Shown one piece after another: positions 1,289 through 54,341 of a stretch of DNA of 55,001 nucleotides. Each line of letters starts with the position of its first letter. The stretch's first letter is position 1. This DNA is from Macrostomum lignano (taxonomy: Eukaryota). Location of the stretch: positions 1-55,001 of the forward strand of contig NIVC01004210.1 of the NCBI GenBank assembly GCA_002269645.1, in the 5' to 3' direction. Both the position numbers and the translations under genes were made by a program. The notes beneath the pieces were generated by a model. It was not told where the DNA came from and made no database searches. It worked only from the letters and a program-made list of their open reading frames with translations.

Positions 1289-1318
1289 TATAAATTTTAA
1301 CTGTCGAGTGAAACGCGT
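1289..1318 (+). promoter_or_regulatory. Putative pPolB promoter: TATAAAT (1289-1295) and ACGCGT (1313-1318)
   Basis: Motifs lie 35 and 12 nt upstream of the pPolB ATG at 1330. Motif match only. Confidence 0.35.
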
Positions 1319-1329
1319 ACACCAACAAC

Positions 1330-4300
1330 ATGCTAATTCATGCAGGCATTCAATTCAGCTCGGCTATTCACGCTAGTGCGCATGATGACACGCTGCAGGT
1401 CAGACGCTTCACTCCAGCATCAAGAGATCTCGAGCCATTTCATTTTTTATCATCAACGAAGTTTGCAGTGCTACAGGCTGTTGAGATGAGATTCGATTCA
1501 TCCGAGAATAATTCTATTCGAGCGCAGCTCAAGTTCAACATCAGAATGGTGAGAATCAAGGAAGCTGCGGTAATCAATGCAGAAGATAAGTGGATCGCAT
1601 GCGGTCTTGAGCTTCTCTCTGATCTAAGAGATTTTGAATTGTGGTGGTTGCAGCAGTTTTCTGAGCTGGAACGCAAGATTGATGCCTACAATTCAAATGG
1701 GAGCGGTTGGATAGTTGAGCAAATCAACTATTTTGATCTGTGCTCTGCCCTCACTGATCGCATTCGCTACTATCGTGGACGATGCGCGAATTTTTCTTTG
1801 CCCAATCAGCTGGCCGTTAAGAAGGCCATAATCAACCCACCGAGCGATGGAAACAATTGCTTTCTGTTTGCCTGTCTCGCTTACCTGCACATCAGAGATC
1901 CAGGTGTGATGAAGTCTTGCCATCGACTAACAACTTACAGCAGATGGTTGGATGAAATCGATCTGAGCGGCATCGCACTACCAGTCGCAATTTCCGATTT
2001 AGACGTTATAGAGGAAAAGAATTCCGAAATCTGTTTCACAGTTTTTAGCTGGGAAGATGATGAGGCCTATGTCATTCGCCAGCCTCTTCCTGGGATTTGT
2101 GCCTCTCGCAAGGTTATTCCTCTACTCTTGCTTCGCAACTCCAGCTCCGATGATGCTGATGATGATGATGTGGTGATGAGAATTGTGGGACTGGACACTG
2201 GTGTGCAGTTTCGAACCTGGACCGGCTCCTGAACAGCAAAAAAGGTCTGAGGAATCGCAAATGGTGTGAGAAGTGCATTTCTCCGTTTCGATTCCAGGAA
2301 GAGTTGGAGCAGCATCGAGACAGCTGCAATCCTCAACTGAAACCAGCCATCATGGAGCGCATGCCTGATGCAAGTAGCAACACAATGCAGTTCATGGCTT
2401 GGGAAAAGACAATCAGTCCCCCATTTGTTGTCTACGCAGATTTTGAAGCTCTGAACACCCCACGTGAACCAGTGAAGCCTGAAAGAGAAGTTACTGTCAC
2501 CAAGTTAACTGAGCATGTACCTGTAGCTGCTGGCTACATTGTTATTCCAAGAGAGGGTATGAGCAGCAAAATTCTGAGGCCGAGTGAGGATGTTTTCCTC
2601 TGCAGCGGACCCAATCCGAATTCTGTCGTGAAACAGTTTTTGGCCTCACTCGAACGTCTTGCTCGTGAAGTTTATGGTTGGAATACCGAGTTTAGTCATC
2701 AGATTGCTGACAGAAACAGTGATGACAACAGGCGCAGCTTTCAAGATGCCACACAGTGCTATTTATGCAATGCAGTGTTCATTTCATCTTCTGACAAGCA
2801 CTGGGATCACGACCACCTCAGCGGTGAATACAAGGGTGCTGCCTGCGCTTCGTGTAACAAGCTTGCTCGGCTGAAACGGCGATTTTTGCCAATAGTTTTC
2901 CACAATCTTCGCGGATATGACCTGCATTTGATTTTCTCAACTGCGCTGGGTGACATGACTGGTTGGAGGGTGAGCGTCATCCCCAAACTGCTGAGTCGTA
3001 CCTCTCCATGAGGGTCGAGTTCCAGATTGATGAGTATGAGAAAGATGGCGTAAAAAAGCCCCTGTTTTTCACGCTACAATTCATCGACTCACTGCAATTC
3101 CTACACAGCAGTCTCTCTCAACTTATTAAGAACTTGCCGGAGGACAACTGTCCCATCACTAATGCGATGCGATCAAAGTATCCAAATCTCTCAAGCGATG
3201 TACTGTTTAGTAAGGGAGTTTTCCCGTATGATTATCTCTCGAATTTAATGTGCTTGATGATCGCCAACTACCAAAAGTAGAAAGCTTTTTTAACCGACTC
3301 ACCAACAGCCACTGTACCGAGGCGGAGTATCGGCATGCGCAGAAGGCCTGGACTGAATTCGAATCTACAACATTGCGCGATTACATGCTCTGCTACTTGG
3401 AGCTGGACATCAGGCAACTAGCAGATATCTTTGAAGGGTTTCGAAGGCTGAGTTTGCAGGAAGACAAGCTAGATCCGGTGCATTTTGTGTCAACTCCAGG
3501 CTTATCATTCGCTTCTGCACTAAAGTCTTCTCAAGTCAAGATCGAACTGCTAACTGACCTCGAGATGTATAAAATGTTTGAGAAAGGAATTCGGGTGGAA
3601 TGTCTTTTGTCAATGTACATCATGTCCAGAGCGAAAGTAGTGATGATGATAATGAACCAGCAGGTAGGAGTTTACTGGCTGTTGATGCTAATAACCTTTA
3701 TGGTCATGCGCTCACAATGCCCCTACCTGTTGGCGGCTTTCGCTGGCTCAGTCAAGAGGAGCTGTGCTCCTGGTCCGAGTGCCGCTTTCTTTCCCTGGAT
3801 GATGACGCTCCAATCGGCTACCTTGTCGAAGCGGATTTGCTCTACCCAGCCGAAATCCACACGGCAACGGAGGATCTTCCATTCGCCCCAGAGAAAAGGT
3901 GTCCGAATTTCGAAGAATTTCCGCAGTACATGCGAGAATTATGGGTACTGCTTCAACATGACAATGATCATTCTCATCATCATCAGCAGCAGCAGCCCGA
4001 CGCGAACACGAGAGAATCCTACCGTTGCGCGCTACCGTGGAGTACAAAAATTAATGCTCACATGCCACAACAAGTTTTCCTATGTACTGCACTCGTCTGC
4101 TCTCCGATTCTATCTATCGCACGGAATGAAGTTGCATGGGCTCCACAGGATGATCGAATTCAGGCAAGAACCTGTCTTCGCGGACTACATTAAGATGAAT
4201 AGCGAGAAGCGCTCTATGGCGAAAAATGATTTCGAGAAGGATTTCTATAAACTGAAAAATAACTCCCTGTTTGGCAAAACAATGGAGAACGTGCGCAAGC

Positions 4301-5071
4301 GGCGGGACATCAGAGTGTGTACTGACCAAGACTGTTTCTTCTCCAACCAAATGTCGCATCATTCACAATCATTACACCGTCACTCAGCATCTTTGAGCTT
4401 CAAAAGCACGAAGTAACTCTTGATCGCCCAATCTTCATGGGGCAGTGTGTTCTAGATCGCTCCAAGATCATCATGTATCGACTTTACTATGACAAAATAA
4501 AACCCATGCTAGAATTCCGTGATGGAGCAAGAGTTCGAGTTTGCGGTGGCGATACAGACTCGTTGTTTTTGAGCTTAGAGAACCTTAGTTTGCAGAGAGA
4601 AGTGCTGCCAATCCTGCATGCCGAAGGCCTCTTGGACACCTCCAATTTTTTCACTAATCATCCTCTCTTCTCGAATCGGCTAAAGGCCAAGCTAGGCTGC
4701 ATTAAAGATGAAGCTGGTGGACTGCAACAGATTGAGTGGGTGCTGCTAAGGCCCAAGCTCTATTCTTTCCTCGCTGAAAGCTCGGCGGCATGCAAAGCAA
4801 AAGCAAAAGGCATCCAACGAAGCGTGCTGAAGAATGAAGTCTCCCACGACGACTACGTCAAGATTTTCAAGGGGGCTTCAAAGCTGTCGCTCACTGTTCG
4901 TCGAATTGGAAGTGAGAAACATCGCGTTTTCACCATTGAGCAACGTAAGCTCGCTCTCAGTATCTGGAGGACAAGCGAGCGTGGACTGGCTCGAACTCAA
5001 GTCTTCCGTTCGGCCACTTTCAGCTGTTAATCAGGGGTAGTCCGAAAAGGACAGCGGACTGCTTAGAGTGA
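1330..5071 (+). CDS. Protein-primed family B DNA polymerase (pPolB), split by 7 frameshifts as assembled (~1,245 aa when corrected)
   Basis: N-terminal GSGW and KKAIINP..DGNNCF; ExoI PFVVYADFE; EndoVII-like CYLC..DHDHLSGEYKGAACASCN; ExoII HNLRGYD; KGVFPYDY; motif A DANNLYG; motif B KLKNNSLFGK; motif C GGDTDS; C-terminal EDKR..NSSLPFGH in the shifted frame ending at TGA 5069-5071. Frame changes near 2170, 2985, 3255, 3597, 4010, 4335 and 4966. Confidence 0.95.
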
Positions 5072-5791
5072 TGCTTTGCACATCTGTGTAACCTTGGCGT
5101 TGAAATTTATTGACTTTTACTTATGTACTCCATGAATTGTTTCTGTGGTTTAATTAATCTGAATGATGATGATGATGATGATGATAATGATGGATGATGA
5201 TGATAATGACAATGCTGGAACGAATAGAGCCAATTCAGTTAGTTACATATTTGTAGTCTCTAAGCAACTAACTGAGCGTAACATTTTCGAGTTGAGTTGT
5301 TCCAGATTTATTTCAATACGAACTTGTGAAAGCCATGTTGGAATAATTTGCGTCATATTGGTCTGGCTTTCCCCTTTTTTATATCCTTGAATTTTTGCAC
5401 AATTGAATGAACTGAGTTACTGTCCTTTTTTATCTTTGCTAGCTTTGCTACTCATATTTTTTTGTAACCATTATCCAATGATTATCTGAAAAATATTTGC
5501 TTCCTTTTTCATTTCTGCTAGTTCTTGTTCGTTTTTGTCTTAGCAGTGCATAATCTGAGTGATGGGTGTGCTTTTTTTTCTTGAGTTGGTGGTGGTCTGA
5601 TTAAATTTTCTATACTCAAACTAATATTGCGATTTCAGTTTTGAAAATAAAGAAAAAGTCGATCGAAGTCTGATTTTCAGGTATATTGATTAAAATGCAC
5701 GCATCTTAATACGTGGTATATGCATGCAAAATTATTATATTTTTGTTCAGCTGTCGTCTTTTTATTTAATTGTTGAAACATATGGTTATTA

Positions 5792-6355
5792 TTAGCACAG
5801 AAAACGGACAAGCAAGGAAAAGTCGGAAATTAGCATGCTCATTGTTTTTGCACCACTGAGAACAAATGAGCCATTGTGAAAAAGCAGGCATTTGCAGAAG
5901 CTTAGTTTGCAGATCAAAGCAGAAAATGATTCTGGCTCATATTGAGCACTTGGTAAAGTGTTTACAAGATTAGCGAGGGGAAGTGCTCTGCACAAGTCAA
6001 TCTTCCCATGAGCAGTAATAGTTTTAATCCGCACATGCACAGCTTGATGAGGCAGCAGTTGAGCAGGCACTCTGCGATGCAGCATAGCCACGAAGCGACG
6101 AGCGGCCCTGACTGAGGCCGAGTAGCTCCGGGCGCCACAGATACTCAGTTGTCCAGTCGGATAGAGCAATAGAGTCACTCTGGGATTCCGCATCCTCTTG
6201 ATAAGCACTCGGGGCCAGACGGGACGATAGATGACATGAGCCATGCTGAGAGCCAGTTCCCGCAGAGGCAATTGGGCACCCCTGCCTCCAGCAAGTCTCA
6301 GATCCACGCCGCCGACCAGATTGGTCACTCGCAGGGCTGTCGCAGGTGTACTCAT
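5792..6355 (-). CDS. Divergent TATA-box-binding protein (TBP) homolog, core domain only, encoded within the Polinton
   Basis: Both TBP repeats align by eye to the canonical core: NLVGGVDL~NIVSTVNL; RMRNPRVTLLLYPTGQLSICGARS~[24 protein letters not shown]; AARRF~AARKY; YEPESFSAL~YEPELFPGL; LLFHNGSFVLSGAK~LIFVSGKVVLTGAK. 187 aa, intronless; AATAAA follows at ~5762-5767 on the - strand. Confidence 0.9.
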   Translation of the reverse strand: MSTPATALRVTNLVGGVDLRLAGGRGAQLPLRELALSMAHVIYRPVWPRVLIKRMRNPRVTLLLYPTGQLSICGARSYSASVRAARRFVAMLHRRVPAQLLPHQAVHVRIKTITAHGKIDLCRALPLANLVNTLPSAQYEPESFSALICKLSFCKCLLFHNGSFVLSGAKTMSMLISDFSLLVRFLC

Positions 6356-6869
6356 TTAGAGAGTCCTTTCTGCCTGTGGTACTGTCTTTGCGAGCTTTTG
6401 AGTGGTGCGGGCACACCTCGCTTCTTAAGTTGATACAGAACTTCGGTTTCAGCCAGTTGTAGTACAGTAATACATTTTTCACTGCGCAACCAGTATCAGA
6501 TGCTTGAATCAAAGGTGATCCCAGATCCTCTAGGTTGTACACCTGTCTGCCAAGCAGCTCAGTCAGAAAGATGGACTTCTTCACCCCGCTTGTCCAGGTG
6601 GGACCGTAAGCAATGTTTAGAATGTCATTTGCCAAATGCATGTACGGTCGAGATCCATCTGTCCACTTGAAATGATGCAAATTCTTTGAGAGCTTTCTGT
6701 AATGCACTTGCATCTCAGGTGAGATTCTCTCCCATGAGAACGGAGAGGCGTACACGTGATGAGTGATATGGTAACTGCCAGCCCGGACTTGGGCAATGGC
6801 CAGCTCCTTCACAACGAAATCTCTGCTCGATCTCTCGCGTGGGAAGCCTTGGAAGTCAATATAGTTCAT
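6352..6869 (-). CDS. Polinton-associated DnaQ/DEDD-like nuclease-fold protein (IDFQGF...VKELAI...NLEDLG...CAVKNV), one probable frameshift
   Basis: Motif pattern typical of a small ORF family found in invertebrate Polintons. Adding one A in the run at ~6447-6449 gives ..NWLKTEVLYQLKKRGV..KGLSK* with the TGA overlapping the TBP ATG (ATGA). As assembled, the ORF instead runs on to 6024. The nuclease assignment is inference. Confidence 0.6.
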
Positions 6870-6922
6870 GATCGGATGGTTTCAAGACGCAAGATGTCGG
6901 GAAGCCGACTCAGTTCCCCTTC

Positions 6923-7584
6923 TTAAATAGTTTTTTTCCTGCTCAGCTGTAGCCAGGCTCTCCCACTCCCGAATCCCTTAACTGTATGATGTGCAGGGGT
7001 GGCCTCTGGAGAAACAGCCGGTTTAGAAATTAGCTGCCTTACTGACTTTCCTATAGCCGAAGCTGGGATGTTAAGCTTTTTGTCTTGAAGCAATGAGACA
7101 AACTCACTCCAGCCTACCGGCTCGTTGGCACATTTCGAATCCCTCACCGCACTGTGAAACAAATCCAGGATGTTTGAGGAGGGTATTGTCTTCCCAGAAA
7201 TTTGCGCCTCGCCATTTTCGGACACCTGAATCAGAGAGGGATTGCCAGATAGGATGGCCCATAGACTGCGGGCTCTCGCTTTAAACTTCTGCGGCACGGA
7301 TTGGGTGATCTTTTCCCCCCAGCTGCTGGGTGCAATATCAGTTTTCAGCATCTTTGCATCACTCGCAGGTACCGCACCATCCTTTCCAGTCCGCTTGCGC
7401 TTGGCCAGCAAACTCTTCATCGCATCATGGTACATGGCAGCTTTCACATCGTCTGGGCAATCCTCGGCAAGCAAAATATCATTGCATTTCCTCTGCGCAT
7501 ATCTCACAGCAGTGTCCATTCAGACTCGACTGGCTTCAAATTCTGTGTGAGCATGTCGTACTCTGACTTGGGGATCAGAACCAT
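6923..7584 (-). CDS. Conserved Polinton accessory protein (GE..I.G..IP.SNI.DL...P.GW..F family), one probable frameshift at ~7520
   Basis: ENGEAQISGKTIPSSNILDLF..EPVGWSEF motif. The upstream frame from ATG 7584 gives the family-like start MVLIPKSEYDML, joined by restoring one A (gaa atg). Confidence 0.75.
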
Positions 7585-7593
7585 TCTGAGAAC

Positions 7594-7911
7594 TTATTCA
7601 TTTTGCTTCTTTTTCTTCACTAGCTTTATTAGAATGTAGAGAATTTTGATAAAACCCGTATTTAGCAGATCCGCAGTTCTTCTATGTGTAGAAATTTTGC
7701 GGATTATTTGCTTTTGCTTCACCAGCGCTGCCTTTTGAGTGAGTGAGAACGACAGAGTGTTTTGCAATAGGTTGTAGCAGGCCTCAATGAGAAATTCACG
7801 TACGGCTTTTGGACCCGCTCTGATCAACAGACGTTTAAAGCTGATGGAATATTTCGGTGACGCGAGAACATCAAACAAACTTTCATGTGAGTCAAAGGTT
7901 TCCATTATCAT
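7594..7911 (-). CDS. Small conserved Polinton protein adjacent to the ATPase (..FLIEACYNLLQNTL...QKAAL...TGFIKIL)
   Basis: Resembles the ICEC..N.L.G...QK..L...GGFL small Polinton ORF. The first ATG is at 7911 or 7905, overlapping the ATPase end. Confidence 0.6.
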   Translation of the reverse strand: MIMETFDSHESLFDVLASPKYSISFKRLLIRAGPKAVREFLIEACYNLLQNTLSFSLTQKAALVKQKQIIRKISTHRRTADLLNTGFIKILYILIKLVKKKKQNE

Positions 7912-8611
7912 TAGTGTTGCAGAATATAGAACAAATGGCGAAATCTCGGCTGTTATTCTTAAGTGTAAACAGGTGGGGTCGCTGATTGGGCAGGATTCGA
8001 GCCCGGACGCGCAGCTCATCAGGGGTGGAAGGGTGAAAATCCAGGAGCAGGTAGGCTCCCCTGCCGTGCGATGTCACGTGCTTGAACACTGACAGCAGAA
8101 AGCCGGGCTTCTCAGCAAAGCACTGCCTGCCCAGCGCTGCAATCTGCAGCTGGTCTCTGGGGTTCTTCATGATCACAAAGTACATCGCATTCAGACTCAT
8201 TGTTCGCAACTCCTTCCCTTTAAAAAATACATTTTGGGTGAGCATAACCAGAAAGCAGGGCAAATGATGGGCAATTCCAGTGAAAACATTTCGCATTGCA
8301 GCAGAATTGGAAGTTTCTTCAATCAGGTCATCAAATACAACCAGGTCATTGGGTCTCAGTGCGGTCTCGATACTGCTGGGAAATCCCTGCTGCAGGTGCA
8401 CGCCGAGACTGCTGAGCTCAGAGTGTGCTGCTTGTGAAATCCCGTAGTACCACAGAACTCTCCCAGGCTTCACATCAAACATGACATCCTTGTATTGTAT
8501 CAGATGTTTCACGAAGGTTGTCTTTCCTGCATTTGTAGGCCCGCTGACAATCATGCAGCTTCCCTGTCGCAGGCGCACATCATAACAGTTTATCCGCTCA
8601 CGTGTTTCCAT
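7892..8611 (-). CDS. A32/FtsK-HerA-like genome packaging ATPase
   Basis: Walker A GPTNAGKT, Walker B LVVFDDL, and the HH..C...LTQN and N..Y....KNPRD motifs. Intact, 239 aa. Confidence 0.95.
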   Translation of the reverse strand: METRERINCYDVRLRQGSCMIVSGPTNAGKTTFVKHLIQYKDVMFDVKPGRVLWYYGISQAAHSELSSLGVHLQQGFPSSIETALRPNDLVVFDDLIEETSNSAAMRNVFTGIAHHLPCFLVMLTQNVFFKGKELRTMSLNAMYFVIMKNPRDQLQIAALGRQCFAEKPGFLLSVFKHVTSHGRGAYLLLDFHPSTPDELRVRARILPNQRPHLFTLKNNSRDFAICSIFCNTNDNGNL

Positions 8612-8636
8612 TGCCTGTTGAGCTAAATCTTGATTT

Positions 8637-9161
8637 TTAAAATCTAATTAAATTTCTTTTTCTTAAGCAACTCTCAAACCTTTGCAGAATTCTTTCATTC
8701 AAGTGGCTCTGCTGATTTGCATGGAGGTGCCGCAGAACCCACTCAAACGAGCGCTTGAAACGAAACTTTTGATAGGCAAACAAGAGACAGAACAAACCGC
8801 ATTTAGCAGAGTTGCAGCTCTGAATTCGATTCACATTGCTACGTAAGTAGAATGGAGAATACCAAAAGGATTTCAGTGCTCTGTGAATGATCTCTAAAGT
8901 GCTGGAGTCCCAGCCCAGAGAGTTAAAGAGTTCTATGGAATTCTCCTTATCAGTATAACAAACCACCCAGTGACCGAAGGATGAGCTGTACTGAAGCAGA
9001 AAGAAAATAAACTTACATCGAGATAAATTTCTTTTGAGAGTTGCTCGCTGAATAAAGTTCAAAGCATAAGATGTTTTATTTATTGAATTCAAGACAATAA
9101 TTAAACAGTTATTTTGTGGCAAAAAGCTTTTAGCCAGTTTAAGCAGTTGAAAAGCATCCAT
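8637..9161 (-). CDS. Adenain-like (clan CE) maturation cysteine protease
   Basis: GHWVVC...ELFNSLG...RIQSCNSAKCGLFCL matches the HW / FDSFG / Q..S..CG.FC pattern. Intact, 174 aa. Confidence 0.85.
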   Translation of the reverse strand: MDAFQLLKLAKSFLPQNNCLIIVLNSINKTSYALNFIQRATLKRNLSRCKFIFFLLQYSSSFGHWVVCYTDKENSIELFNSLGWDSSTLEIIHRALKSFWYSPFYLRSNVNRIQSCNSAKCGLFCLLFAYQKFRFKRSFEWVLRHLHANQQSHLNERILQRFESCLRKRNLIRF

Positions 9162-9184
9162 ATTAGCGTTGCGCCAGCGTACTC

Positions 9185-10468
9185 CTAGGATGGAAAATCT
9201 AGCAGAATCTCCCTGTGCTTCGTGACCTCAATCAGTGAGTCATACAGGCACATAACAATCAGAGATACAGGCTCCTCCAGGGCCTGTCGGAAGCGAATCT
9301 CCAGCCGCAAATTGCCCTCCTTCTGTCCGTACCACAGGGCCGCTCCCTCAGGCGTGAGATCGAATGCGAAAGCTGTGTTGCCGTTGGAGAACAACTGGTA
9401 GGGGACCCACGGAACCGAGTTGGTAGGGCTGGCTGACTGACAGCTTTTCAGGTAGTGCAAGTACTCTCTCACGAATGAATTATTCTCAGGTGCAAATGCA
9501 GCGTGGCACATGGCTTCACCACCTTTCTTTAGTGCTAGCTGGCTGAGGTTGAAGCTCTGGAACTCGAAGGGGCTGGAATGGTGATGGCCATTGAAGGCTC
9601 GGTGGTTCACGAAGACCAGCATAACGAACTTCGGCAGTTTGCCATGGGTGAATCCTTCAATGTTTTTTGACTGAATTCCCTGTGGTAGAATGAAGTTTTG
9701 CATTTCGGTTCGCTCGATGGGGTAAAGTGCGTTCTGATTGGTCAGTCCCTGCTCATGCGCCAGGCTGATGTGAGGCGCCACTTTGACTCGGCGCAGGTTC
9801 AGAATGCAGTGGGAGATTTCCATTCGGTAGGCTGTGTTGTTCTCATCTGGGGTTCGGATGGCGAATGCAGTATCGCTGGGCATCAGCTTGATGTGCAGGT
9901 GTAAATTGTTCAGCAGCAGAACAGGACACTGGAAAATGTCGCTGAGCAGTGGTCCCGCATACTCCACCCAGCGGGACTCCCTGTGTCTCTCGGCATGCCC
10001 CTCAGCAGCAGTTTCGGGTTCCAGGAATCCGGCGGGGTAGAACTTTAACTGCTGAGCATCGGATGAGCTCATGAGAGCTTTTAGGTAGGCATGGTAGGGG
10101 TAGAGCTGGTCTCCACCTGATACAATGCGCTGGTTGATGCTCACGATTACATCTGAGAATGCCGTAGACAGGACAAAGTTTTCTGGGTGCACCCCACTGT
10201 CTCTGCGCTCAGTGACAACTCCATCGGCATTTCGAACCTCCTCCCTCATCAAAGCCCCGCCAAGCCGGACTAGGCGACAGCGAATATACAGGAATGAGCT
10301 CAGCAGATCAGTGTACTCATCAGCCGATGGATGACAGTCGAATTCAATAGGTGAGTTAGTAGCAATAGAGTTCACGGGGTGAATATCAACATATGTGGAT
10401 TTTTCAATGGCAGTCTGCAGCACGGGGGACTTGAACAAATCGAGTCTCGGGTTGAATCCGTAAGCCAT
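9185..10468 (-). CDS. Double-jelly-roll major capsid protein (hexon-like, Polinton PY)
   Basis: LDLFKSP..QTAIE..YVDIHP...PIEF, GPLLSDIFQ..LLLNN, LPKFVMLVFV..AFNG..SPFEF, FAFDLTP, GNLRLEIRF motifs. Intact, 427 aa. Confidence 0.93.
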   Translation of the reverse strand: MAYGFNPRLDLFKSPVLQTAIEKSTYVDIHPVNSIATNSPIEFDCHPSADEYTDLLSSFLYIRCRLVRLGGALMREEVRNADGVVTERRDSGVHPENFVLSTAFSDVIVSINQRIVSGGDQLYPYHAYLKALMSSSDAQQLKFYPAGFLEPETAAEGHAERHRESRWVEYAGPLLSDIFQCPVLLLNNLHLHIKLMPSDTAFAIRTPDENNTAYRMEISHCILNLRRVKVAPHISLAHEQGLTNQNALYPIERTEMQNFILPQGIQSKNIEGFTHGKLPKFVMLVFVNHRAFNGHHHSSPFEFQSFNLSQLALKKGGEAMCHAAFAPENNSFVREYLHYLKSCQSASPTNSVPWVPYQLFSNGNTAFAFDLTPEGAALWYGQKEGNLRLEIRFRQALEEPVSLIVMCLYDSLIEVTKHREILLDFPS

Positions 10469-10470
10469 TG

Positions 10471-10881
10471 CTATGAGAGCGAGTCCAGAACACGTTTAAC
10501 AGTCTTTTTGCTCACTTTTTGCTTTCCTTTGCCTGTTTTCTTGCTTTGAGTTTTAGACCTCCCTTTCTTAGGTTTATTTCGCCCTGACTGGCTTCTTTTC
10601 GGTGATTTCTCCGTCTTACTCTTTTTCTTCTTTTTTGTCTGCTTCTTACTGCCCTGTTTGACTAGTCGCTGCTTTGGTCTGTTTCTATTGCTTCTGCTGT
10701 TGCTGCTGCTACCGCTGGCGGTGGTATGCCCTGGCTTTGATAGCGATATTGACTTTGTGGAAGCTTCTGGAGGAGGCTGGTAAGTCATGATTCCTGGAAA
10801 ACTCCCACAGCCATAGAGCGCCGGCTTTTGGCTTCCTGCCAGAGTCCCTGAATACTGACGAATCAGCTGTTGGTAGTTCAT
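10471..10881 (-). CDS. Lys/Arg/Ser-rich basic protein, probable virion core (DNA-condensing) protein
   Basis: Located between penton and MCP; strongly basic C-terminal half; LYGCG fits the adenain (M/L/I)xGx|G consensus. Function inferred. Confidence 0.65.
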   Translation of the reverse strand: MNYQQLIRQYSGTLAGSQKPALYGCGSFPGIMTYQPPPEASTKSISLSKPGHTTASGSSSNSRSNRNRPKQRLVKQGSKKQTKKKKKSKTEKSPKRSQSGRNKPKKGRSKTQSKKTGKGKQKVSKKTVKRVLDSLS

Positions 10882-11687
10882 TGTATTAGCCTTTCCCGAA
10901 TATGAACTGTGAGCAGAACAGGGCTGCTGCTCCGAGCAGTCAGTGAGTAGCCAAAGATGTCACGCAGTTGAAATCTAATGCCATGTAGAAAATTAGCTTT
11001 CTGAATCGGGAAGAATATTGCTTTCTTAAACACTTTGCTCATGTAGCTGCCCCATTCGACATCGGATGACATGCTCACAGTTCGCAGCACGGAGTTCCAG
11101 TTACAGTTTGTTCGCTCCACAATGCTGCAGTGCAAGTTGATCAGGTTGGTGGGCGGACAACCGATGCAGCAGAGTGACACTTGCCGTCCGGGTGGGATCT
11201 TCACAGGCTGGTTTCCGAATCCCAGCCACTGCAGAATTTTACTTGATGGAAGGAACAATTCTGCTCGAGCCGTGTTGTTGAGCACTACCGTTCTCAACTC
11301 TTGGATTTCAAACTTTATGCCAATATCTCTAGCGCTGCTTCGCCCCATTAAACCGGACTCATCAGCTTCCATTTCAGACTCCCTTTCGCTCATTGCATCG
11401 AAGAACAGTGACTCAGAGTTGGCCAGCAGCTCATTCATGCGCTCAACCAGTTCCTCCACTCTAGCAAAGCGTCCGGGTTGAAGAACCAGGGCCTCATGCT
11501 CTCTTCCATCTGAGACAGTGAAGCAGTAAGGCTCGTCAACATTGAACCATGCAGCAGGCAGATGGATTTCAGCCAGACCTGCCTCATAGTCCACATTTCG
11601 ATCCAAGTAAATAGGTGAAGGCAGGTGAAAATGAAAGTCACTAGGAGTACCTTCAGCATTTTCGCTACAAATGATGATGCTTCTCAT
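10878..11687 (-). CDS. Penton / minor capsid protein (single jelly roll)
   Basis: GTPSDFHFHLPSPIYL..YEAGLAEIHLP..WFNV and NLINLHCSIVE...VLRTV..FFPI..IRFQLRD..G motifs. The first ATG is at 11687; the stop overlaps the next ATG (ATGA). Confidence 0.88.
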   Translation of the reverse strand: MRSIIICSENAEGTPSDFHFHLPSPIYLDRNVDYEAGLAEIHLPAAWFNVDEPYCFTVSDGREHEALVLQPGRFARVEELVERMNELLANSESLFFDAMSERESEMEADESGLMGRSSARDIGIKFEIQELRTVVLNNTARAELFLPSSKILQWLGFGNQPVKIPPGRQVSLCCIGCPPTNLINLHCSIVERTNCNWNSVLRTVSMSSDVEWGSYMSKVFKKAIFFPIQKANFLHGIRFQLRDIFGYSLTARSSSPVLLTVHIRERLIQ

Positions 11688-11717
11688 AGTTGGGAATGGC
11701 TGCACAATGTCGGTATC

Positions 11718-12785
11718 TTACACTTTTCTTAAGTCCTTCTCATCCACCCAGTCAGTGGACTTGTAGCCGGCCCACTTGACGAGATATCGGATCTTTCCCT
11801 TCCGCTTCTCAGTCTTCAGAACCTTCTCGATTACATACAGCCGCTGCGAGTCCGGAACAGCTTGCAGCTCATGCTCATGGAAGAGGCCTCTAATGTCTTC
11901 CCCCTTCATGTCTCGAATCCTGTACATGTAGGGATAATGCTTTGGTGCCCTAAACACTATGGTGTACACCTCCTCGCTCCAGTTCGCCTTGTATCCCTTC
12001 CTGAAGAGTCTGGGTGCATTGGAAATCCGCACTGATTGGTTTTCACAGAACTTCGGTTTTCTCAGTTTCTCAACTGTCTCAATCGCTTTCCCATCATAAA
12101 GGTTCATCCACACTTCAGTCTCGTTTGCTTTGCTGACATTCATTGGTGTAGTCTTGATGCTTCTGTGGAAAGTATTGTTATAGGACTTGACCAGTTTAGG
12201 CAGCACATCAAGCCATTGTAGAGTGCTGTTGTGAGTAAAGTAACGCCACATCTTGCTTTTTAAAGTTCGATTCCATCTTTCAATTATGGCTGCTTTGTGC
12301 TCACTGCTAGTTGGAAACGCCAGAATCCCCCGGTCTATGCAGAACTGGCGAAAAATTGCGTTGACAAACTCCTTTCCCTGATCTGTGCGGACAGTGCGCG
12401 GCTGCCGCTTTGAGCTCTTCAGCATGCTCTCAAACGCAGATTTCACTTCTGCCGCGCTCTTAGACTTCAGTGCTCGGGCCATTGCAAATTTAGACAAAAC
12501 ATCAATGCAGGTGAGAATGTATTTATGCCCGCGATTATACTTTGCAAACGGAATCATTTCCACCAGATCCATCTCCCACTGATCATCAATGGCCCTCACT
12601 ATTATTGGCGCCCTTGGAAATCGTACTCTAGCTGGCTTATGCAGAGTGTGTACTGGCTGCTGACTTAGCCACTTCTCAATGCTCTTGACTCCAATATGCT
12701 CGCCTCTTTTTCGCAGTTCACGTTGCAGTTTTGAAGAACTGCAATAGCTCGCAGGCTGATTTGGGTTGAAATAAATTTTTTCCAT
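11718..12785 (-). CDS. Retroviral-type (rve) integrase with C-terminal chromodomain
   Basis: YFNP..PASY, TLHKP, WEMDL / RTDQGKEF / IIERWNRTLK (D-D-E triad intact); chromodomain YVIEKVL..YLVKWAGY..DW. The likely start is MEKIY at 12785. Confidence 0.95.
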   Translation of the reverse strand: MEKIYFNPNQPASYCSSSKLQRELRKRGEHIGVKSIEKWLSQQPVHTLHKPARVRFPRAPIIVRAIDDQWEMDLVEMIPFAKYNRGHKYILTCIDVLSKFAMARALKSKSAAEVKSAFESMLKSSKRQPRTVRTDQGKEFVNAIFRQFCIDRGILAFPTSSEHKAAIIERWNRTLKSKMWRYFTHNSTLQWLDVLPKLVKSYNNTFHRSIKTTPMNVSKANETEVWMNLYDGKAIETVEKLRKPKFCENQSVRISNAPRLFRKGYKANWSEEVYTIVFRAPKHYPYMYRIRDMKGEDIRGLFHEHELQAVPDSQRLYVIEKVLKTEKRKGKIRYLVKWAGYKSTDWVDEKDLRKV

Positions 12786-12955
12786 TTTCGGAAACAAAGA
12801 AGCATTTTTATTTTTAGGTTTTCTTAAGACATTGAAAATGTATAGCGCATGTGAAAGCAAGCATATATTTTTTATTTTCAAACAAAGAGATGGAAAGCAG
12901 GTCTGGATAAAAAGCTCGTGGCACAGAGTTTGTCTTAATGTCAGAGGGTCTGCAA

Positions 12956-13723
12956 TCAGTCGAAGCACGGCCTGGGCAGCTTCATGGCATCCAATCTGCG
13001 CAGAGCGAACGGCGGCTGCTTGCGTTTCCTGGCGTTCTCAGCGGCGGCTGCTTCAGCTCGGAACTGGTACCAGACTGGGTCCTCTTGCAGATCAGTGTCC
13101 TGCCGAGGAATCGCTCCAGCTGCTGGCTTGGTCAGTTGCAGAGGCGTTGAAGTGGCAAACGCTGTGTCGATTTGCAGATTGGATGGCATGCCAGCCACAT
13201 CGCCAGCAGCAGCAGGAGCATCGTCCTCCGCCTTCACTACCGGCTTGGTCTCTTCCGCGTTTTCGCCAGCACCGTCTTCATTTTCGATGCTGTTGGAGGA
13301 AGATCCCGACTCCAGCTCGTATACATCGGAAATCTCACGTGGAGCCGATAGCTGCTCGTCGATCCAATCCGCGTACTGCCACAGCTTTCGCCACAGCGGC
13401 GGTGTCAGCGGCACGGTGTTCCGCTTAAGAAACTCGTCGCAGCAGTCCTCCGGCAATCGCTTTAACCAGATAATGCCGTTTTTCACTTCGATGAACTTAT
13501 CGAAGCCGAGTTTGACAACCTTTGGCTGTTTGTCCAAGGCCGCCTTGACAAGCGATCGCTTCAACTCCTTGAGCTTCTCCCACTGACGGATGTTCAAATT
13601 GAAGCCGGGGACTCCAGGTTTCAAACTCGCAGTGCTGCCATGTCGGTAAAATTTTCTGATAGCAATGAACATAACTCCTTCATACTCCTGTATTTGGAGT
13701 TTATATCCTTCGCCGATGTCCAT
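12956..13723 (-). CDS. Protein with two tandem PC4/Sub1-like ssDNA-binding domains and an acidic tail
   Basis: DIGEGYKLQIQEYEGVMFIAIRKFY...KPGVPGFNLNIRQWEKLKE aligns to PC4 ([43 protein letters not shown]). A degenerate second copy follows: KLGFDKFIEV..IIWLKR..VPLTPPLWRKL. Confidence 0.82.
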   Translation of the reverse strand: MDIGEGYKLQIQEYEGVMFIAIRKFYRHGSTASLKPGVPGFNLNIRQWEKLKELKRSLVKAALDKQPKVVKLGFDKFIEVKNGIIWLKRLPEDCCDEFLKRNTVPLTPPLWRKLWQYADWIDEQLSAPREISDVYELESGSSSNSIENEDGAGENAEETKPVVKAEDDAPAAAGDVAGMPSNLQIDTAFATSTPLQLTKPAAGAIPRQDTDLQEDPVWYQFRAEAAAAENARKRKQPPFALRRLDAMKLPRPCFD

Positions 13724-13800
13724 GACTTAAAATCTAACAGAATAAACTATCTCGTCGAAAAAAAATCGTTTTTTCATGAATCAAAGAGATTTTTTGGTCC

Positions 13801-13807: not shown

Positions 13808-14006
13808 GACTAAACCACTGCAGCAGACATACAGCAATAGAAAAACATAGGCCTATGTTCTCTCACTAAGGCCCCATGGAATTTCCATGGCTTTCCCTGC
13901 GGCAGAGTCCACCAATGCATTTACATAGGCGCTATGTTTACACACTACAGGCCCGTGGTTTTCCCACGGAAATTCCTGCGGCAGAGTCCACATTTCCCCT
14001 ACTACT

Positions 14007-14220: not shown

Positions 14221-14437
14221 CCTAGAGCGAGCCGGATTGCCATTGTAAAGTTTCAAAGGACCCGAGGGCCAGATGGAGAGGCTTTGCGGGCCGGAGTTTG
14301 CCCTAGAGTATGCTCTAGAGCATACTGAATTGACTAGTAATGCGAAAAAAATTCTAAAAAACTCTAATACAGCGCCCTTCCACTGCAGTCTCCCATTTTT
14401 CCATTTCAATCATCTCCTTCACGTTTCCCTCGTCGAG

Positions 14438-17400
14438 GTGGAGCGGCTGGTCCCCCTGTCAGGCGTTGAGGAGGTCACCGCATTCGAGAACGTGTTCTGG
14501 ACGCGAACGCAGAAGAATTTCACGGACGGTCACATCTGGCTGTCGGTGGTCACCAGGCCTCCAAGGTCCCGATTCACCAGGGTTCAGCGAGCGACCGCCT
14601 GCCTGACGCTGCTGATGTCCACCATGATGGTCAATTTGATGTTCTACGGCCAGGCCGAGCGCGTTGAAAGTCCCAAGCTGGTCGAGCTGGGCCCGGTGAA
14701 ATTCACCCTGCACAGCATCTACATTGCCACGGTATCGTCGCTGATTATTGTGCCGATCAACCTGCTCATTGTGCTGCTGTACAGCAAACGACGGAACCGT
14801 ACAAAGCGGACCAACTCGTCCGTGGTGAAGCCCTGGTCTCCTGAATCTGCTGCGAGAGACAAAGATTCTAATAGAATTCAAGAGGATATAGCTGGTGACC
14901 ATGGCGATGGGGATGAATCTGTCGTTGTAGAGACTACTCAGGATAGTCCAGTCGCGGCACCTGAGAAAGAGACGCTCAGTAAGCATGCTTGTAAATCGTA
15001 ATACAGAATTTAAACAGCCATGAGACTCACTCCAGCACAATATCACGCTCTAAACACCCATGAGACTCACTCCAGCACAATATCACGCTCTAAACACCCA
15101 CGAGACTCACTACAGCACAATATCACGCTCTAAACACCCATGAGACTCACTCCAGCACAATATCACGCTCTAAACACCCACAAGACTCACTCCAGCACAA
15201 TATCACGCTCTAAACACCCACGAGACTCACTCCAGCACAATATCACGCTCTAAACACCCACGAGACTCACTCCAGCACAATATCACGCTCTAAACACCCA
15301 CGAGACTCACTCCAGCACAATATCACGCTCTAAACACCCATGAGACTCACTCCAGAACAATATCACGCTCTAAGCACCCACGAGACTCACTCCAGCACAA
15401 TATCACGCTCTAAACACCCACGAGACTCACTCCAGCACAATATCACGCTCTAAACACCCATGAGACTCACTCCAGCACAATATCACGCTCTAAACACCCA
15501 CGAGACTCACTCCAGCACAATATCACGCTCTAAACACCCACGAGACTCACTCCAGCACAATATCACGCTCTAAACACCCACGAGACTCACTCCAGCACAA
15601 TATTACGCTCTAAACACCCATGAGGCTCACTCCAGCACAATATCACGCTCTAAACACCCACAAGACTCACTCCAGCACAATATCACGCTCTAAACACCCA
15701 CGAGACTCACTACAGAACAATATCACGCTCTAAACACCCATGAGACTCACTCCAGCACAATATCACGCTCTAAACACCCACGAGACTCACTCCAGCACAA
15801 TATCACGCTCTAAACACCCACGAGACTCACTCCAGAACAATATCACGCTCTAAACACCCATGAGACTCACTCCAGAACAATATCACGCTCTAAACACCCA
15901 TGAGACTCACTCCAGCACAATATCACGCTCTAAACACCCACGAGACGCACTCCAGCACAATATCACGCTCTAAACACCCACGAGACTCACTCCAGTACAA
16001 TATCACGCTCTAAACACCCACGAGACTCCGGCTTCACGCACTGAGTCTGAACATTTAAACCTAACATAGCAACCCAATTCTCATCCCCACAGAAGGCCGT
16101 CTTCGCAGTTTTGCCCGCCTATTTTTTCCGCTGCCCTGGTGGTCGCACATTGTTGCGCACTGCCTGGCCGCTGCCTCGGTGCTGGCCTCGATCTACCTCA
16201 TGGTGGAGTTCGCCGGGGTGCTCGGTGAACAGAAGACGGCAGAGTGGCTGGCCGCCATGACCGTCGGCCTACTGCAGTCAATCCTGCTGGTGCAGCCCAT
16301 CAAGATCGTCATTGTGGCTCTGTTCTACGCCGTTGTGGTGAAGAAGCCCGAAGAGGACGAAGACGAGATGGCCAAAGCGTTGCTGACTTCCGGCATGCCG
16401 CCGATGCACAAAGCCCTGACTCTGCGCGACCTGTCCGACCCGGAGAAGCTGGCCGAGCTGGCCAAGAGGAAGAGGGCGAGCCGGCCGCCGCCGGACCTGT
16501 GCTCGCTGGCTGCTCTGCGGGAGAAGCGGTGGGTTGCTCATGGTTTGGAGATAATTGGGGTGGAGATTTAAGTGTTGCTAGTGAGTGGTATCCAGTGCTC
16601 AATGGTGAGTGGTATCCAGTGCTCAATGGTGAGTGGTATCCAGTGCTCAATGGTGAGTGGTATCCAGTGCTCAATGGTGAGTGGTATCCAGTGCTCAATG
16701 GTGAGTGGTATCCAGTGCTCAATGGTGAGTGGTATCCAGTGCTCAATGGTGAGTGGTATCCAGTGCTCAATGGTGAGTGGTATCCAGTGCTCAATGGTGA
16801 GTGGTATCCAGTGCTCAATGGTGAGTGGTATCCAGTGCTCAATGGTGAGTGGTATCCAGTGCTCAATGGTGAGTGGTATCCAGTGCTCAATGGTGAGTGG
16901 TTTCTGCAGTAATCAAACCAAATAATAAAAATACGCAATGCTCAAATCCATTTGTCAACAGCGAGCGGGAACTGAAGATGCAGGACATTATCAAGGACAT
17001 CCTGTTCTACATCCTGTTTCTCATCCTGCTGATGGTGACGGCCTACAGTCACCAGGACTACCGGAATCACATGCAGAATCAGCTAGTCAAGCGGATGATG
17101 TCTACCGGGCCGCTGACGCTGTCATCTCGCGCCAATGGTAGCGCCTGGATCCGCGCCAATCCAACGCTGTGGCGCGCCGATCGACGCTCGATGGTGCTGG
17201 ATGCCCTGCAGCAGCACCTGGTGCCGCAGCTCTACCCGCGGCTGGCAGAGGCCGATCCTCGAGCTGCCGGCCAAGTGGAGACCGAGGCCGGGCGCACCTG
17301 GACCAGCGACGCGAACCTGCTGCTGGCGCGCAGTCTGCAGCTCCGGCAGTTGCGCGCCGCGCCAACCAGCATCTGCCGGGTGTCCGCCTACTTCGTCGAT

Positions 17401-20400
17401 TTCATCACCGCCTGCCGACCGGAGTACGTTGTATGGAATGAGGACTCGGCCGACTACAATGGCAACTGGAGCAACCGGGTGTCAGCTATCCAATCCACCG
17501 GTTAGGCGGCATTCATGATTTGTTCCGCATCTGCATGTACCTATTGAGTCTGCCTCCCAAAGATGAGAACTACAATGGCAGAGGGATTAGGGACATAGTA
17601 ATAGAGAGGATAGAGAGAAAGACTAAGAAGGAAGGGAGACAAGGAAAGGAAAAAGGAGTGCGGTGAATCCTTAGACGTGACATAAACAAACAACCAAAGT
17701 GCCGACACAGCATGCAGTGGCGACTGTGGACAGACTGATTTAAACTTACTTCAAATTCTCTTTTTTGCCTGTGAGGATTATGCACAACGTGCCTTTTAGA
17801 TTTATAGTTCACTCATAGACTAAACAATGTACCTGACATGTTAACATGTAACAACCCCCCACCCCCACTGTCATTGGTACCCAGTTCTCACCTGTTTATC
17901 TGATGGTCTCAGTCTACACACGCACCTGAGGTCTGCACATCCCATTTCTATTATCTCGATCTAAATTGTGTGCCTCCACCTCTCTCATCTTCCGATTGCA
18001 GGAAGAAAAATCGAATTCAATTTCGATTTCGATTTGAATTGAAAAAATAATTTCGATCCATCTCTAAAACCTACCTCATTCCACACCACCACTCACCTCA
18101 CTCCACACCACCACTCACCTCACTCCACACCACCACTCACCTCACTCCACACCACCACTCGACTCACTCCACACCACCACTCACCACTCCACACCCTAAC
18201 CACCTCACTCCACACCCCAAACACCTCACTTCACACTCCAACCACCTCACTCCACACCCCAACCACCTCACTCCACACCCCAACCACCTCACTCCACACC
18301 CCAAACACCTCACTCCACACCCCAAACACCTCACTCCACACCCCAACCACCACCCCACGCCCGACTCACCCCGCTGTCTCTACAGCTCTATCCAGCACCC
18401 CCGCACGCAAATGGCATGGCCGCAACTGCTCACTAAAATACCCGCCCCCATCTCCCTCTTCTCCCCATCAGACGACTGGCTCGTATCCGCCTACCGATTC
18501 GAGAGCGCCCTCCGCATGTACGGCACCCCCTACTCTGGCCAGCTGGCCGTCTACGGCGGCGGCGGCTACGTGGCTTCGCTGGGCCGCAGCCGGGACCAAG
18601 CCGACACCCGCCTGGACCAGCTGCGGGCGTCGGGCTGGCTGGATCTGCGCACCCGGGCCGTATTTATCGAGTTCCTGCTGTACAATCCCAACACCAACCT
18701 TTACAGTTACTCGGGCTCAATTGTGGAATTCTTCACCGGCGGAGGCGCGATGTCGAAACTGTTGGTGTCGACTTTCTCGCTGAATCGATACGTTGGACCG
18801 ACGTCTGTTTTCTATTTGGCTCTGGATATTTCATCGCTAATCTGCATTCTAGTGTTCATCTATAGAGAGCTGTGCCAGCTGCACCAGAGAAAGTGCGCTT
18901 ATTTTAAGGTGCGACGTTCTTTCTTTGGCTTAATTACTCGAAACTCAGCATCGGTTCTTCAGCGTATCGAATCTTGAGCACGAGCATAAATGCCCTACTT
19001 TTTTACCCTTGATCTACTCACTCCTCCTCGTACTAATCAACTTTCAGAACGCTTTCGACGTCATGGACTTTTTATTCATAATCGTGGCTATTATTGAAGT
19101 CGCCATGTTCAGCATGAAGACAGCGGTTTCCAAGGTGATGGTCGGCCAGCTTGCCAGCGATGGAGAAAAACTGTTCAGCTTTGCTTGGTTGAATACTTGG
19201 CAGGAGGTGAGCGGTCTTGATGGGTTTTTATTGGCATGTTTCGACCAGGTGGGGCTTGGTTAAATTTGGGGTGGGTGTCAGTGGAGAGACTGGGGCTTGG
19301 TTCAATTAGGGGTGGGTGTCAGTGGAGAGACTGGGGCTTGGTTCAATTAGGGGTGGGTGTCAGTGGAGAGACTGGGGCTTGGTTCAATTAGGGGTGGGTG
19401 TCAGTGGAGAGACTAGGGCTTGGTTCAATTAGGGGTGGGTGTCAGTGGAGAGACTGGGGCTGGTTCAATTAGGGGTGGGTGTCAGTGGAGAGACTGGCGC
19501 TTGGTTCAATTAGGGGTGGGTGTCAGAGGAGAGACTGGGGCTTGGTTCAATTAGGGGTGGGTGTCAGTGGAGAGACTAGGGCTTGGTTCAATTAGGGGTG
19601 GGTGTCAGTGGAGAGACTAGGGCTTGGTTCAATTAGGGGTGGGTGTCAGTGGAGAGACTAGGGCTTGGTTCAATTAGGGGTGGGTGTCAGTAGAGAGACT
19701 GGGGCTTGGTTCAATTTGGGGTGGGTGTCAGTGGAGAGACTGGGGCTGGTTCAATTAGGGGTGGGTGTCAGTGGAGAGACTAGGGCTTGATACAATTTGG
19801 GGTGGGTGACAATGGAAAGACTGGGGCTTGGTTCACTCTTGAGTGGGAGCGAATAACTTATTTCTTACCTCCCTCCGCAGATGAGCCAGCTGTTCATCGG
19901 GCTCATAGTGTTTCTGTTCACCATCAGATTCCTGCGCATCCTGTCCTTCAACCGGAAGATAAACATGCTTGCCGAGGTGCTGCAGGAAGCAGCTAAACCG
20001 CTGCTGCACTTTATGTTCGTCTTCGCTATAATGGTGTTCGCCTTTGTCCAGCTGGGCTACTTGCTTTTCTACAAGACTGTGGACTCCTTCAGAACAGTGG
20101 TCACTTCGCTGGAGACACTGGGGATCATGACTTTGAGTGAGGGCGCACGATTTGTAAATAAACGGGCCTTTGATGACCGCCCCCAAATTTGACATTTTAT
20201 CCTTTGATGAGCCGCCACCCTTTTACCCTTTGTGATAAGCCGCCACCATTTTACCCTTTGATGAGCCGCCAGAATTTTACCCTTTGATGAACATCCACCC
20301 TTTTACCCTTTGATGAGCCACCACCCTTTTACCCTTTGATGAGCCGCCACTGCACTTTTACCCTTTGATGAGCCGCCACTGCACTTTTACCCTTTGATAA

Positions 20401-53954: not shown

Positions 53955-54341
53955 TCAATCGTCGCCGCCTTCATCGTCAGCCTCCTCGCTATTGATGTTG
54001 AAGTACCTGAGCTCGTAGGTGTCCTTCTCCGTGGCAACTACTCGAAGCCAGTCGCGTAGAGAATTCTTCTTCAAGTACTTCTTAGTCAGGTATTTCAGAT
54101 AGCGCTTGGAGAATGGTATGTCGGCCGACACGGTCACTTTGCTCTTGTTCCGTTCAATAGTGACTAAATTCTGCAGGTTATTGGTTTTGCCCTGCACCTT
54201 GATCCTCTCGGTGAGGAATTTCTCAAAGCTGGCCACATCCATGATGCCGTCCTCAACTGGGTGGGTGCAGTCGATGACGAACTTGTGAGTCTGCTTCTTT
54301 TTCTTGCCCTTCAGATTTGAGCGGCGTGGCACCTTCGGCAT
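53955..54341 (-). CDS. RPL22: 60S ribosomal protein L22 (eL22)
   Basis: [31 protein letters not shown] and [36 protein letters not shown] at 54341, preceded by acceptor cccgcag 5 nt upstream; 128 aa. Confidence 0.97.

Follow-up and report, generated by a model that had tools for sequence, protein, structure and literature searches.

Introduction

Beta- and gammaherpesviruses encode a viral TATA-binding protein (vTBP; BcRF1 in EBV, ORF24 in KSHV and MHV68, UL87 in HCMV), which works with a TATT box (PMC4893493; PMC7498053). TBP genes have also been reported sporadically in mirusvirus-like elements (PMC10675990). Closer to the locus described here, Starrett et al. (2021; PMC8502044; related preprint, 10.1101/697771) labelled a TBP-like gene, in the legend to their Fig. 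5, in a MELD virus or element with an adintovirus-like PolB. A TBP-like gene in a polinton-like genome is thus already on record through that label, and the suggestion in the initial annotation of the present locus that such genes were unreported was too strong. The words "promoter" and "Macrostomum" are absent from the main text of that paper, and TBP, TATA and Macrostomum from the text of its supplement, in the versions available to us; a search of the openly accessible literature turned up no work devoted to TBPs of Polintons or to their promoters.

At issue in animal Polintons is how they turn on their capsid genes and whether a helper virus is needed for it. The window analysed (the whole stretch of 55,001 nt, from the first base of contig NIVC01004210.1 of the laboratory flatworm Macrostomum lignano) carries a Polinton whose TBP-like gene is genuine, belongs to the element and is under selection, and for whose protein a candidate promoter box is described below.

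The Polinton cassette

The cassette around the TBP-like gene, read as viral by the initial annotation, is that of a Polinton: an rve integrase (PF00665) and pieces of a protein-primed DNA polymerase B (pPolB; PF03175), which together mark Polinton/Maverick elements, are accompanied by a C5 protease, a P-loop ATPase, a PC4-domain gene and an AGTAGT end at position 14006. Its features, with coordinates in the window, are as follows.

1330..5030 (+): protein-primed polB, in several pieces in the assembly (PF03175, PF02945)
5761..5766 (−): AATAAA just past the TBP stop, a putative poly(A) signal read from the sequence
5792..6355 (−): TBP-like gene of 187 aa with two repeats, stand-alone, at the end of the integrase-to-TBP block (Pfam, PDB and model matches)
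6024..6869 (−): exonuclease/Maelstrom-like ORF (tentative name, from an Atlas lead), whose final ~110 codons share their DNA with TBP codons 1-110, read in a different frame
6923..8019 (−): two accessory ORFs, 6923-7519 and 7594-8019, with no known family in Pfam
7892..8611 (−): P-loop packaging ATPase, from its Walker A motif and position; P-loop library matches weak
8637..9161 (−): adenovirus-type C5 protease (PF00770 over cut-off), without a box in family 1
9185..10468 (−): putative major capsid protein, from size and position
10471..10881 (−): basic K-rich ORF, core-protein-like, containing CCTAAGAA ~100 nt upstream of the capsid ATG
10878..11687 (−): putative minor capsid protein, from position; no library match
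11718..12785 (−): rve integrase with chromodomain (PF00665, PF00385)
12956..13723 (−): PC4-domain protein (PF02229)
13872..14006 (−): terminal inverted repeat of the right end, starting AGTAGT; visual comparison was with the left end of another copy

The ORF at 9185-10468, which we take to resemble a Polinton major capsid protein, found no match in profile-library searches, and its single-sequence model reached a pLDDT of 31; a Pfam search with the exonuclease-like (exo-like) ORF likewise gave no match. The window holds only the right end of the element, the left end being missing because the window starts at base 1 of its contig. In related copies of both Polinton families described below, both ends are seen, with terminal inverted repeats starting AGT and a 6-bp target duplication. 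Contigs from four sequencing runs, guessed to be RNA but possibly DNA, cover the Polinton including TBP. Small indels set these contigs apart from the window, and a number of the frame breaks may accordingly stem from assembly errors.

Within the Polinton, a 15-bp tandem array lies at 290-1260, upstream of polB. A left-end gene seen in other copies (L035:2170-3709 and L048:6402-7736) has a Cys/His-rich N-terminus, tandem repeats and a weak, sub-cut-off match to FAM76. The right end is adjoined by a host polycystin (PKD1-like) gene at 14273-20192, and a ribosomal protein L22e ORF lies near the window end (53955-54341).

The TBP-like protein

The ORF at 5792-6355 (−) is intronless and encodes 187 aa. 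Two stretches of the protein match PF00352, the TBP family (E 1.6e-21; 76.3 bits, cut-off 22.9), and its counterpart in a second Polinton family scores 72.8 bits. All 35 distinct PDB sequence matches are TBPs or TBP-containing chains. An AlphaFold2 model built from a 15-row alignment (pLDDT 82) has the saddle fold and matches solved TBPs with TMq 0.66-0.80 (best E 1e-13; 23-28% identity); the matches among viral structures in BFVD, which are TBP homologues of NCLDVs and mirusviruses, are weaker than those to cellular TBPs (8-19% identity). The intronless two-repeat TBP recognised from the letters by the initial annotation is borne out by the Pfam, PDB and model matches, and the structure comparison that it had proposed returned the expected fold.

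The element protein is 27% identical to host TBP and 28% to host TRF2. When aligned with host TBP (alignment A3), its C-terminal repeat retains YEPESF and LLF, and elsewhere VWP stands for KRF, LLY for LIF and IKT for IQN; this agrees with the initial reading, in which the YEPE stirrup and the Phe residues of ESF and LLF were kept and these three motifs were replaced. Two of four intercalating Phe and one of two central Asn are therefore present, which falls short of the canonical set, the roles of the compared positions being assumed by us from canonical TBP. The AGGRGA insertion that had also been pointed out exists in the window's TBP, but it is no general trait: it is confined to family 1, is missing from family 2 and is shorter in P0013.

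Across both families, E140, P141, E142, F144 and F159 are invariant in 11/11 rows of alignment A2, and the acidic C-terminal stirrup, by sequence of the TFIIB-contact type, is kept in all 11. The families also have derived changes of the DNA face in common ([WH]PR, YP[TS]G, [IV]KTI[TS], K155 and FH), and the replaced residues R49, Y65, K111, T112, K155 and H160 are invariant or nearly so across TBPs that are 30-34% identical. Conservation of these replacements suggests that the specificity of the element TBP has been changed rather than lost. The Val of host GKMV in the N-terminal repeat, presumably a minor-groove-lining residue, is Ser or Thr in 11/11 rows of element TBPs, a change that could leave space for the guanine 2-amino group of the box described below.

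Copies, families and distribution

The genome holds at least 152 matches to the element TBP, a count based on the scoring of 150 among 234 candidates. Among the matches scored, 19 are near-identical copies (98-100% over the full length, without stops), and the others are subfamilies down to ~70%. In the 10 family-1 loci with long flanks, TBP follows the exo-like ORF in every case and polB lies on the other side in 9. With P0003 as query, 17 more genome matches were found at 36-38%, and all seven of those examined that have long flanks belong to a second Polinton family, which is 34% identical to the first in TBP, 55% in integrase and 41-45% in capsid. The gene order integrase ... ATPase, exo-like ORF, TBP is common to both, and these two TBP-bearing families were the only Polinton families among 99 of 464 candidates scored, with no Polinton lacking TBP among them to serve as a control. 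The host genome retains canonical TBP and intact TRF2, at three loci each. With identity to host TBP and TRF2 at 27-28%, a recent retrocopy of host TBP is ruled out; the initial annotation had considered one present in this copy only, which is also at odds with the number of genome matches and with the second family.

Copies of family 2 at L071-L072, L075-L076 and L079-L080 measure 11-12 kb, have both ends and target duplications, carry little or no polB, and are deletion derivatives. In both families a PC4-domain gene lies by the terminal repeat, behind an ordinary TATA (window 12956-13723; L073:8252); where this gene stands with respect to the block is not the same in the two. The family-2 integrase gene has, by eye, an apparent 95-nt GT-AG intron (L074:6409-6315, minus).

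Beyond this genome, the named near-identical proteins in databases are from Macrostomum lignano. When 1.84 billion representatives were searched with a profile, eight matches fell below 1e-30, one of them a plant TBP and seven with the family motifs: four gene models containing pieces of the TBP gene (two of them M. lignano), one Logan, one ENA and one JGI protein. Database gene models P0008, P0010, P0011 and P0014 join element TBP pieces to unrelated exons and are probably annotation artefacts. No relative was found in IMG/VR scans with A1, P0013, P0058, P0089 and the capsid alignment, and a JGI metagenome scan returned 34 loci with best segments at 23-39% identity, in 0/34 of which a neighbour matched the window's other genes. 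Many further short divergent TBPs are on record; those with IFHxGK in public assemblies (P0058, P0067, P0089, P0090, P0101 and P0125) may be other viral TBPs.

Selection, overlap and recombination

The TBP gene is kept by purifying selection. In pairwise comparisons of 11 subfamily representatives (55 pairs), codons 8-109 gave a dN/dS of 0.10-0.22 between the two main groups; codons 110-182 gave 0-0.31 wherever dS was finite (38 of 55 pairs), the other 17 pairs being saturated. The three closest pairs, which have few changes, gave 0.32-0.58 in codons 8-109. Neutral evolution across copies, which the initial annotation had named as a ground for refutation, does not fit values that lie mostly at 0.1-0.2.

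The tail of the exo-like ORF overlaps TBP in another frame, over codons 1-110 in family 1 and 128 in family 2, a feature that the initial annotation did not mention. This second frame is open in nearly all copies examined of both families, and synonymous shuffles leave it open in 0.1-2.7% of trials (10 genes). Within the overlap, variation is highest at third positions of TBP codons (46 of 102 columns variable, vs 19 and 17 at the other two), which shows the TBP frame to be the constrained one and the exo-like tail to be held open without much sequence constraint.

Within two subfamily groups, identity of 91-99% gives way to 61-80% near TBP nucleotide 330 (window ~6025), the junction of the two repeats, and polB stands at 57-67%. 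This step indicates a recurrent recombination boundary between the repeats, with the N-terminal repeat travelling with the structural block and the C-terminal repeat with the polB side.

The YWTAAGAA box

New here is a pattern of YWTAAGAA boxes in the integrase-to-TBP block, common to both families: most genes of the block are preceded by the motif in sense orientation, at a distance of 35-74 nt or, in the case of two genes, 107-149 nt. It aligns with TATAAAAG, with G at position 6 and often C at position 1 and T at position 2. Between 6355 and 12900 of the window, 7/7 sites are in the sense orientation and 6/7 lie 43-74 nt before an ATG. The sites, and the ordinary TATA boxes of the element, are as follows.

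6422..6429 (−): box CTTAAGAA, 74 nt upstream of the TBP start codon, within the exo-like ORF; same place in family-1 loci
6920..6927 (−): box TTTAAGAA, 58 nt upstream of the exo-like start codon; likewise in L047, L052 and L074
7956..7963 (−): box CTTAAGAA, 52-58 nt upstream of ORF 7594, which likely starts at 7911/7905
8660..8667 (−): box CTTAAGAA, 56 nt before the ATPase ATG
11023..11030 (−): box TTTAAGAA, 149 nt before the basic ORF; 149 nt in L047, 140 nt in L074
11726..11733 (−): box CTTAAGAA, 46 nt upstream of the minor-capsid start codon, in the last integrase codons; same codons in family 2
12821..12828 (−): box CTTAAGAA, in non-coding DNA 43 nt upstream of the integrase start codon
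13802..13807 (−): ordinary TATA (TATATAAG), 84 nt before the PC4 ATG
1289..1294 (+): TATAAA of the ordinary type, 41 nt upstream of the first start codon in polB

The pattern recurs in other copies. In L047, from another subfamily, 8/8 sites are sense and each precedes a gene, at 39, 53, 149, 110 (capsid), 42, 47, 47 and 65 nt from the ATG; in L074, from family 2, 6/6 are sense, at 35 or 12 nt (minor capsid), 140 nt (basic ORF), 107 nt (capsid), 35 nt (ORF 7594-like) and 53 nt (exo-like), and a box also precedes the integrase, whose start position is uncertain. Chance expectations are 1.77 sites for L047 (0/200 shuffles) and 1.60 for L074 (2/200 shuffles), values that take as given a motif already chosen by eye in the block. 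A canonical TATAAAAG stands 53 nt ahead of TBP in family 2. In family 1 no box precedes the protease or ORF 6923, and the capsid site of the window reads CCTAAGAA instead of YWTAAGAA.

Most polB and PC4 sides lack the motif, and the whole 55-kb window is not enriched in it (12 sites vs 9.9 expected). Scans found no site in the polB-side loci L031, L033, L040, L042, L043, L046, L048 and L049 or in the family-2 PC4-side loci L071 and L073; polB-side loci L035 and L037 have two sites each, outside polB, and family-2 copies L079, L086, L088 and L090 have one ~100-130 nt downstream of TBP. Most box sites lie within coding sequence, some at stop codons or conserved Lys-Lys or Leu-Arg pairs. Since the contexts include non-coding DNA (integrase), Leu-Arg codons and aromatic-Lys-Lys codons, no single protein motif accounts for the box.

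An ordinary TATA precedes PC4 in the window, in L047 and in family 2; a polB TATA like that at 1289 was not found at the corresponding place in L048. The sense strand from 5383 to 13700 contains no TATAWA, and a TATAAAC-type box for the block was rejected on this ground. The initial annotation had proposed the TATA sequences at 1289 and 13801 as targets of the viral TBP, but as ordinary polB and PC4 boxes they are more likely to be read by host TBP, and YWTAAGAA takes their place as candidate target. Wild-type TBP has been crystallised with G(−26) and T(−30) variants of the TATA box (PDB titles), so host TBP may read the new box too.

Several ATGs within 7585-13725 (minus) follow short pyrimidine-AG stretches that resemble splice acceptors; trans-splicing or alternative leaders are possible explanations of these stretches.

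A model for late transcription and its alternatives

The reading that we prefer, with a probability of roughly 0.55, is that the viral TBP reads YWTAAGAA and recruits host TFIIB and Pol II to the late genes, as the element's own late-transcription factor. The proposed scheme would start from a TBP-fold protein held under purifying selection in two distant Polinton families and from the sequence pattern in which YWTAAGAA precedes integrase, capsid and packaging genes and an ordinary TATA precedes PC4. Host TBP would start the early genes; the viral TBP would first be made from the canonical TATAAAAG in family 2, and in family 1 by weak host reading of its own box, leading to positive feedback. 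The viral TBP would then bind YWTAAGAA through its remodelled DNA face, and its invariant C-terminal stirrup (EPExF) would recruit host TFIIB and Pol II, so that transcription would start ~25-32 nt downstream of each box. The outcome would be an early-to-late switch without a viral RNA polymerase and without a helper virus.

A first alternative, which we regard as unlikely, accepts the box as a real promoter element but assigns it to another reader, either host TBP or TRF2 acting on a weak TATA variant or the RNA polymerase of a helper virus with a baculovirus-like (A/G/T)TAAG signal, and leaves the viral TBP with a separate job. The late consensus of baculoviruses is ATAAG/TTAAG, which the box resembles; virophages and PLVs depend on helper giant viruses; and the host has an intact TRF2. 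In addition, single changes to G(−26) or T(−30) are tolerated by wild-type TBP (PDB titles). However, the consensus takes in more than TAAG (YW..AA), the smallest spacings between box and ATG group at 35-47 nt, as for starts ~30 nt downstream, and a TBP is present in both of the families that carry the box. We also know of no such helper virus from flatworms.

The protein might instead be a dominant-negative decoy or repressor that binds TFIIB (or Brf, TFIIA, NC2 or Mot1) or occupies TATA boxes, damping host or early viral transcription late in infection. TRF2 does not bind TATA, and the element TBP resembles it in having both N-terminal intercalating Phe and the second Asn replaced, while its TFIIB-side stirrup is invariant; moreover, the gene closes the late block, and the family-1 gene itself stands behind a late box. 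We consider this reading improbable, since DNA-face replacements that are invariant or nearly so across 30%-identical proteins fit a new specificity better than a lost one, and since it leaves the box unexplained. Of the two roles offered by the initial annotation, the promoter-specificity factor is thus favoured by selection, retention in two families, the invariant stirrup and the non-canonical box, and the decoy, which fits the box poorly, is not.

Very improbable, in our judgement, is a third explanation, in which the box is an RNA-processing signal (a branch point or trans-splicing element) of a long polycistronic late transcript, with the TBP acting at one or two promoters only. Trans-splicing is common in Macrostomum lignano, the block genes are packed head to tail, AG-like acceptors precede several ATGs, and the motif is strictly sense-strand; against this, purines rather than a pyrimidine tract follow the motif, and WTAAGAA is entirely absent from 13432-37411, the region with the intron-rich host polycystin gene. 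Finally, a passenger or decayed host retrocopy, conserved only through the open second frame that codons 1-110 overlap in nearly all copies examined, is largely refuted, as identity to host TBP and TRF2 is 27-28%, dN/dS is low outside the overlap too, and it is the TBP frame that is constrained within it (third positions vary most).

Should late transcription by the viral TBP be confirmed, starts ~30 nt past each box would depend on this protein, and the pair would constitute a natural altered-specificity TBP with the TFIIB contact kept, of use for understanding TATA recognition, and an orthogonal promoter/factor pair. A self-encoded TBP with a matching box is a specific answer to the question of capsid-gene activation that can be tested in a laboratory flatworm. 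Other Polinton lineages may have their own TBP paired with other boxes, as natural TBP-box specificity pairs.

Comparison with known systems

The MELD case of Starrett et al. (PMC8502044) is alike in having a TBP-like gene in a polinton-like genome; it differs in being a legend label in a section on non-animal datasets, unaccompanied by analysis in the main text as available. Cellular TBP and TRF2/TLF (PF00352) have in common with the element protein the two-repeat saddle, the C-terminal EPExF stirrup and the C-terminal Phe pair, and TRF2 has lost intercalating Phe residues as the element TBP has; unlike both, the element TBP has no N-terminal tail, and its pattern of DNA-face replacements is found in neither host paralogue. 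TBP homologues of NCLDVs and mirusviruses are likewise virus-encoded TBP folds and were matched structurally in BFVD, but at 8-19% identity they stand below cellular TBPs (23-28%). NCLDVs, moreover, largely bring their own RNA polymerase.

The herpesvirus vTBPs offer the closest functional parallel: these viruses, too, have no RNA polymerase of their own, encode a TBP-fold protein and express late genes from a TATA variant (PMC4893493; PMC7498053). As described in those sources, however, the vTBP is a domain within a large protein, ~10% identical to TBP, that belongs to a six-protein complex and binds Pol II directly, whereas the element TBP is a 187-aa core only, 27% identical to host TBP, with the TFIIB stirrup kept and YWTAAGAA as its candidate box. 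A Pfam search of the element's ORFs gave no match to the herpesvirus-type partner families, and no partner set is recognisable among them. The late-gene TATA variant common to the two is thus a likeness in how they may work and not a sign of membership. We see about even odds that these animal Polintons run an autonomous early-to-late programme built from one captured, re-specified TBP, the YWTAAGAA box and host TFIIB and Pol II, which would be the smallest viral late-transcription system and convergent with the vTBP/TATT system of herpesviruses.
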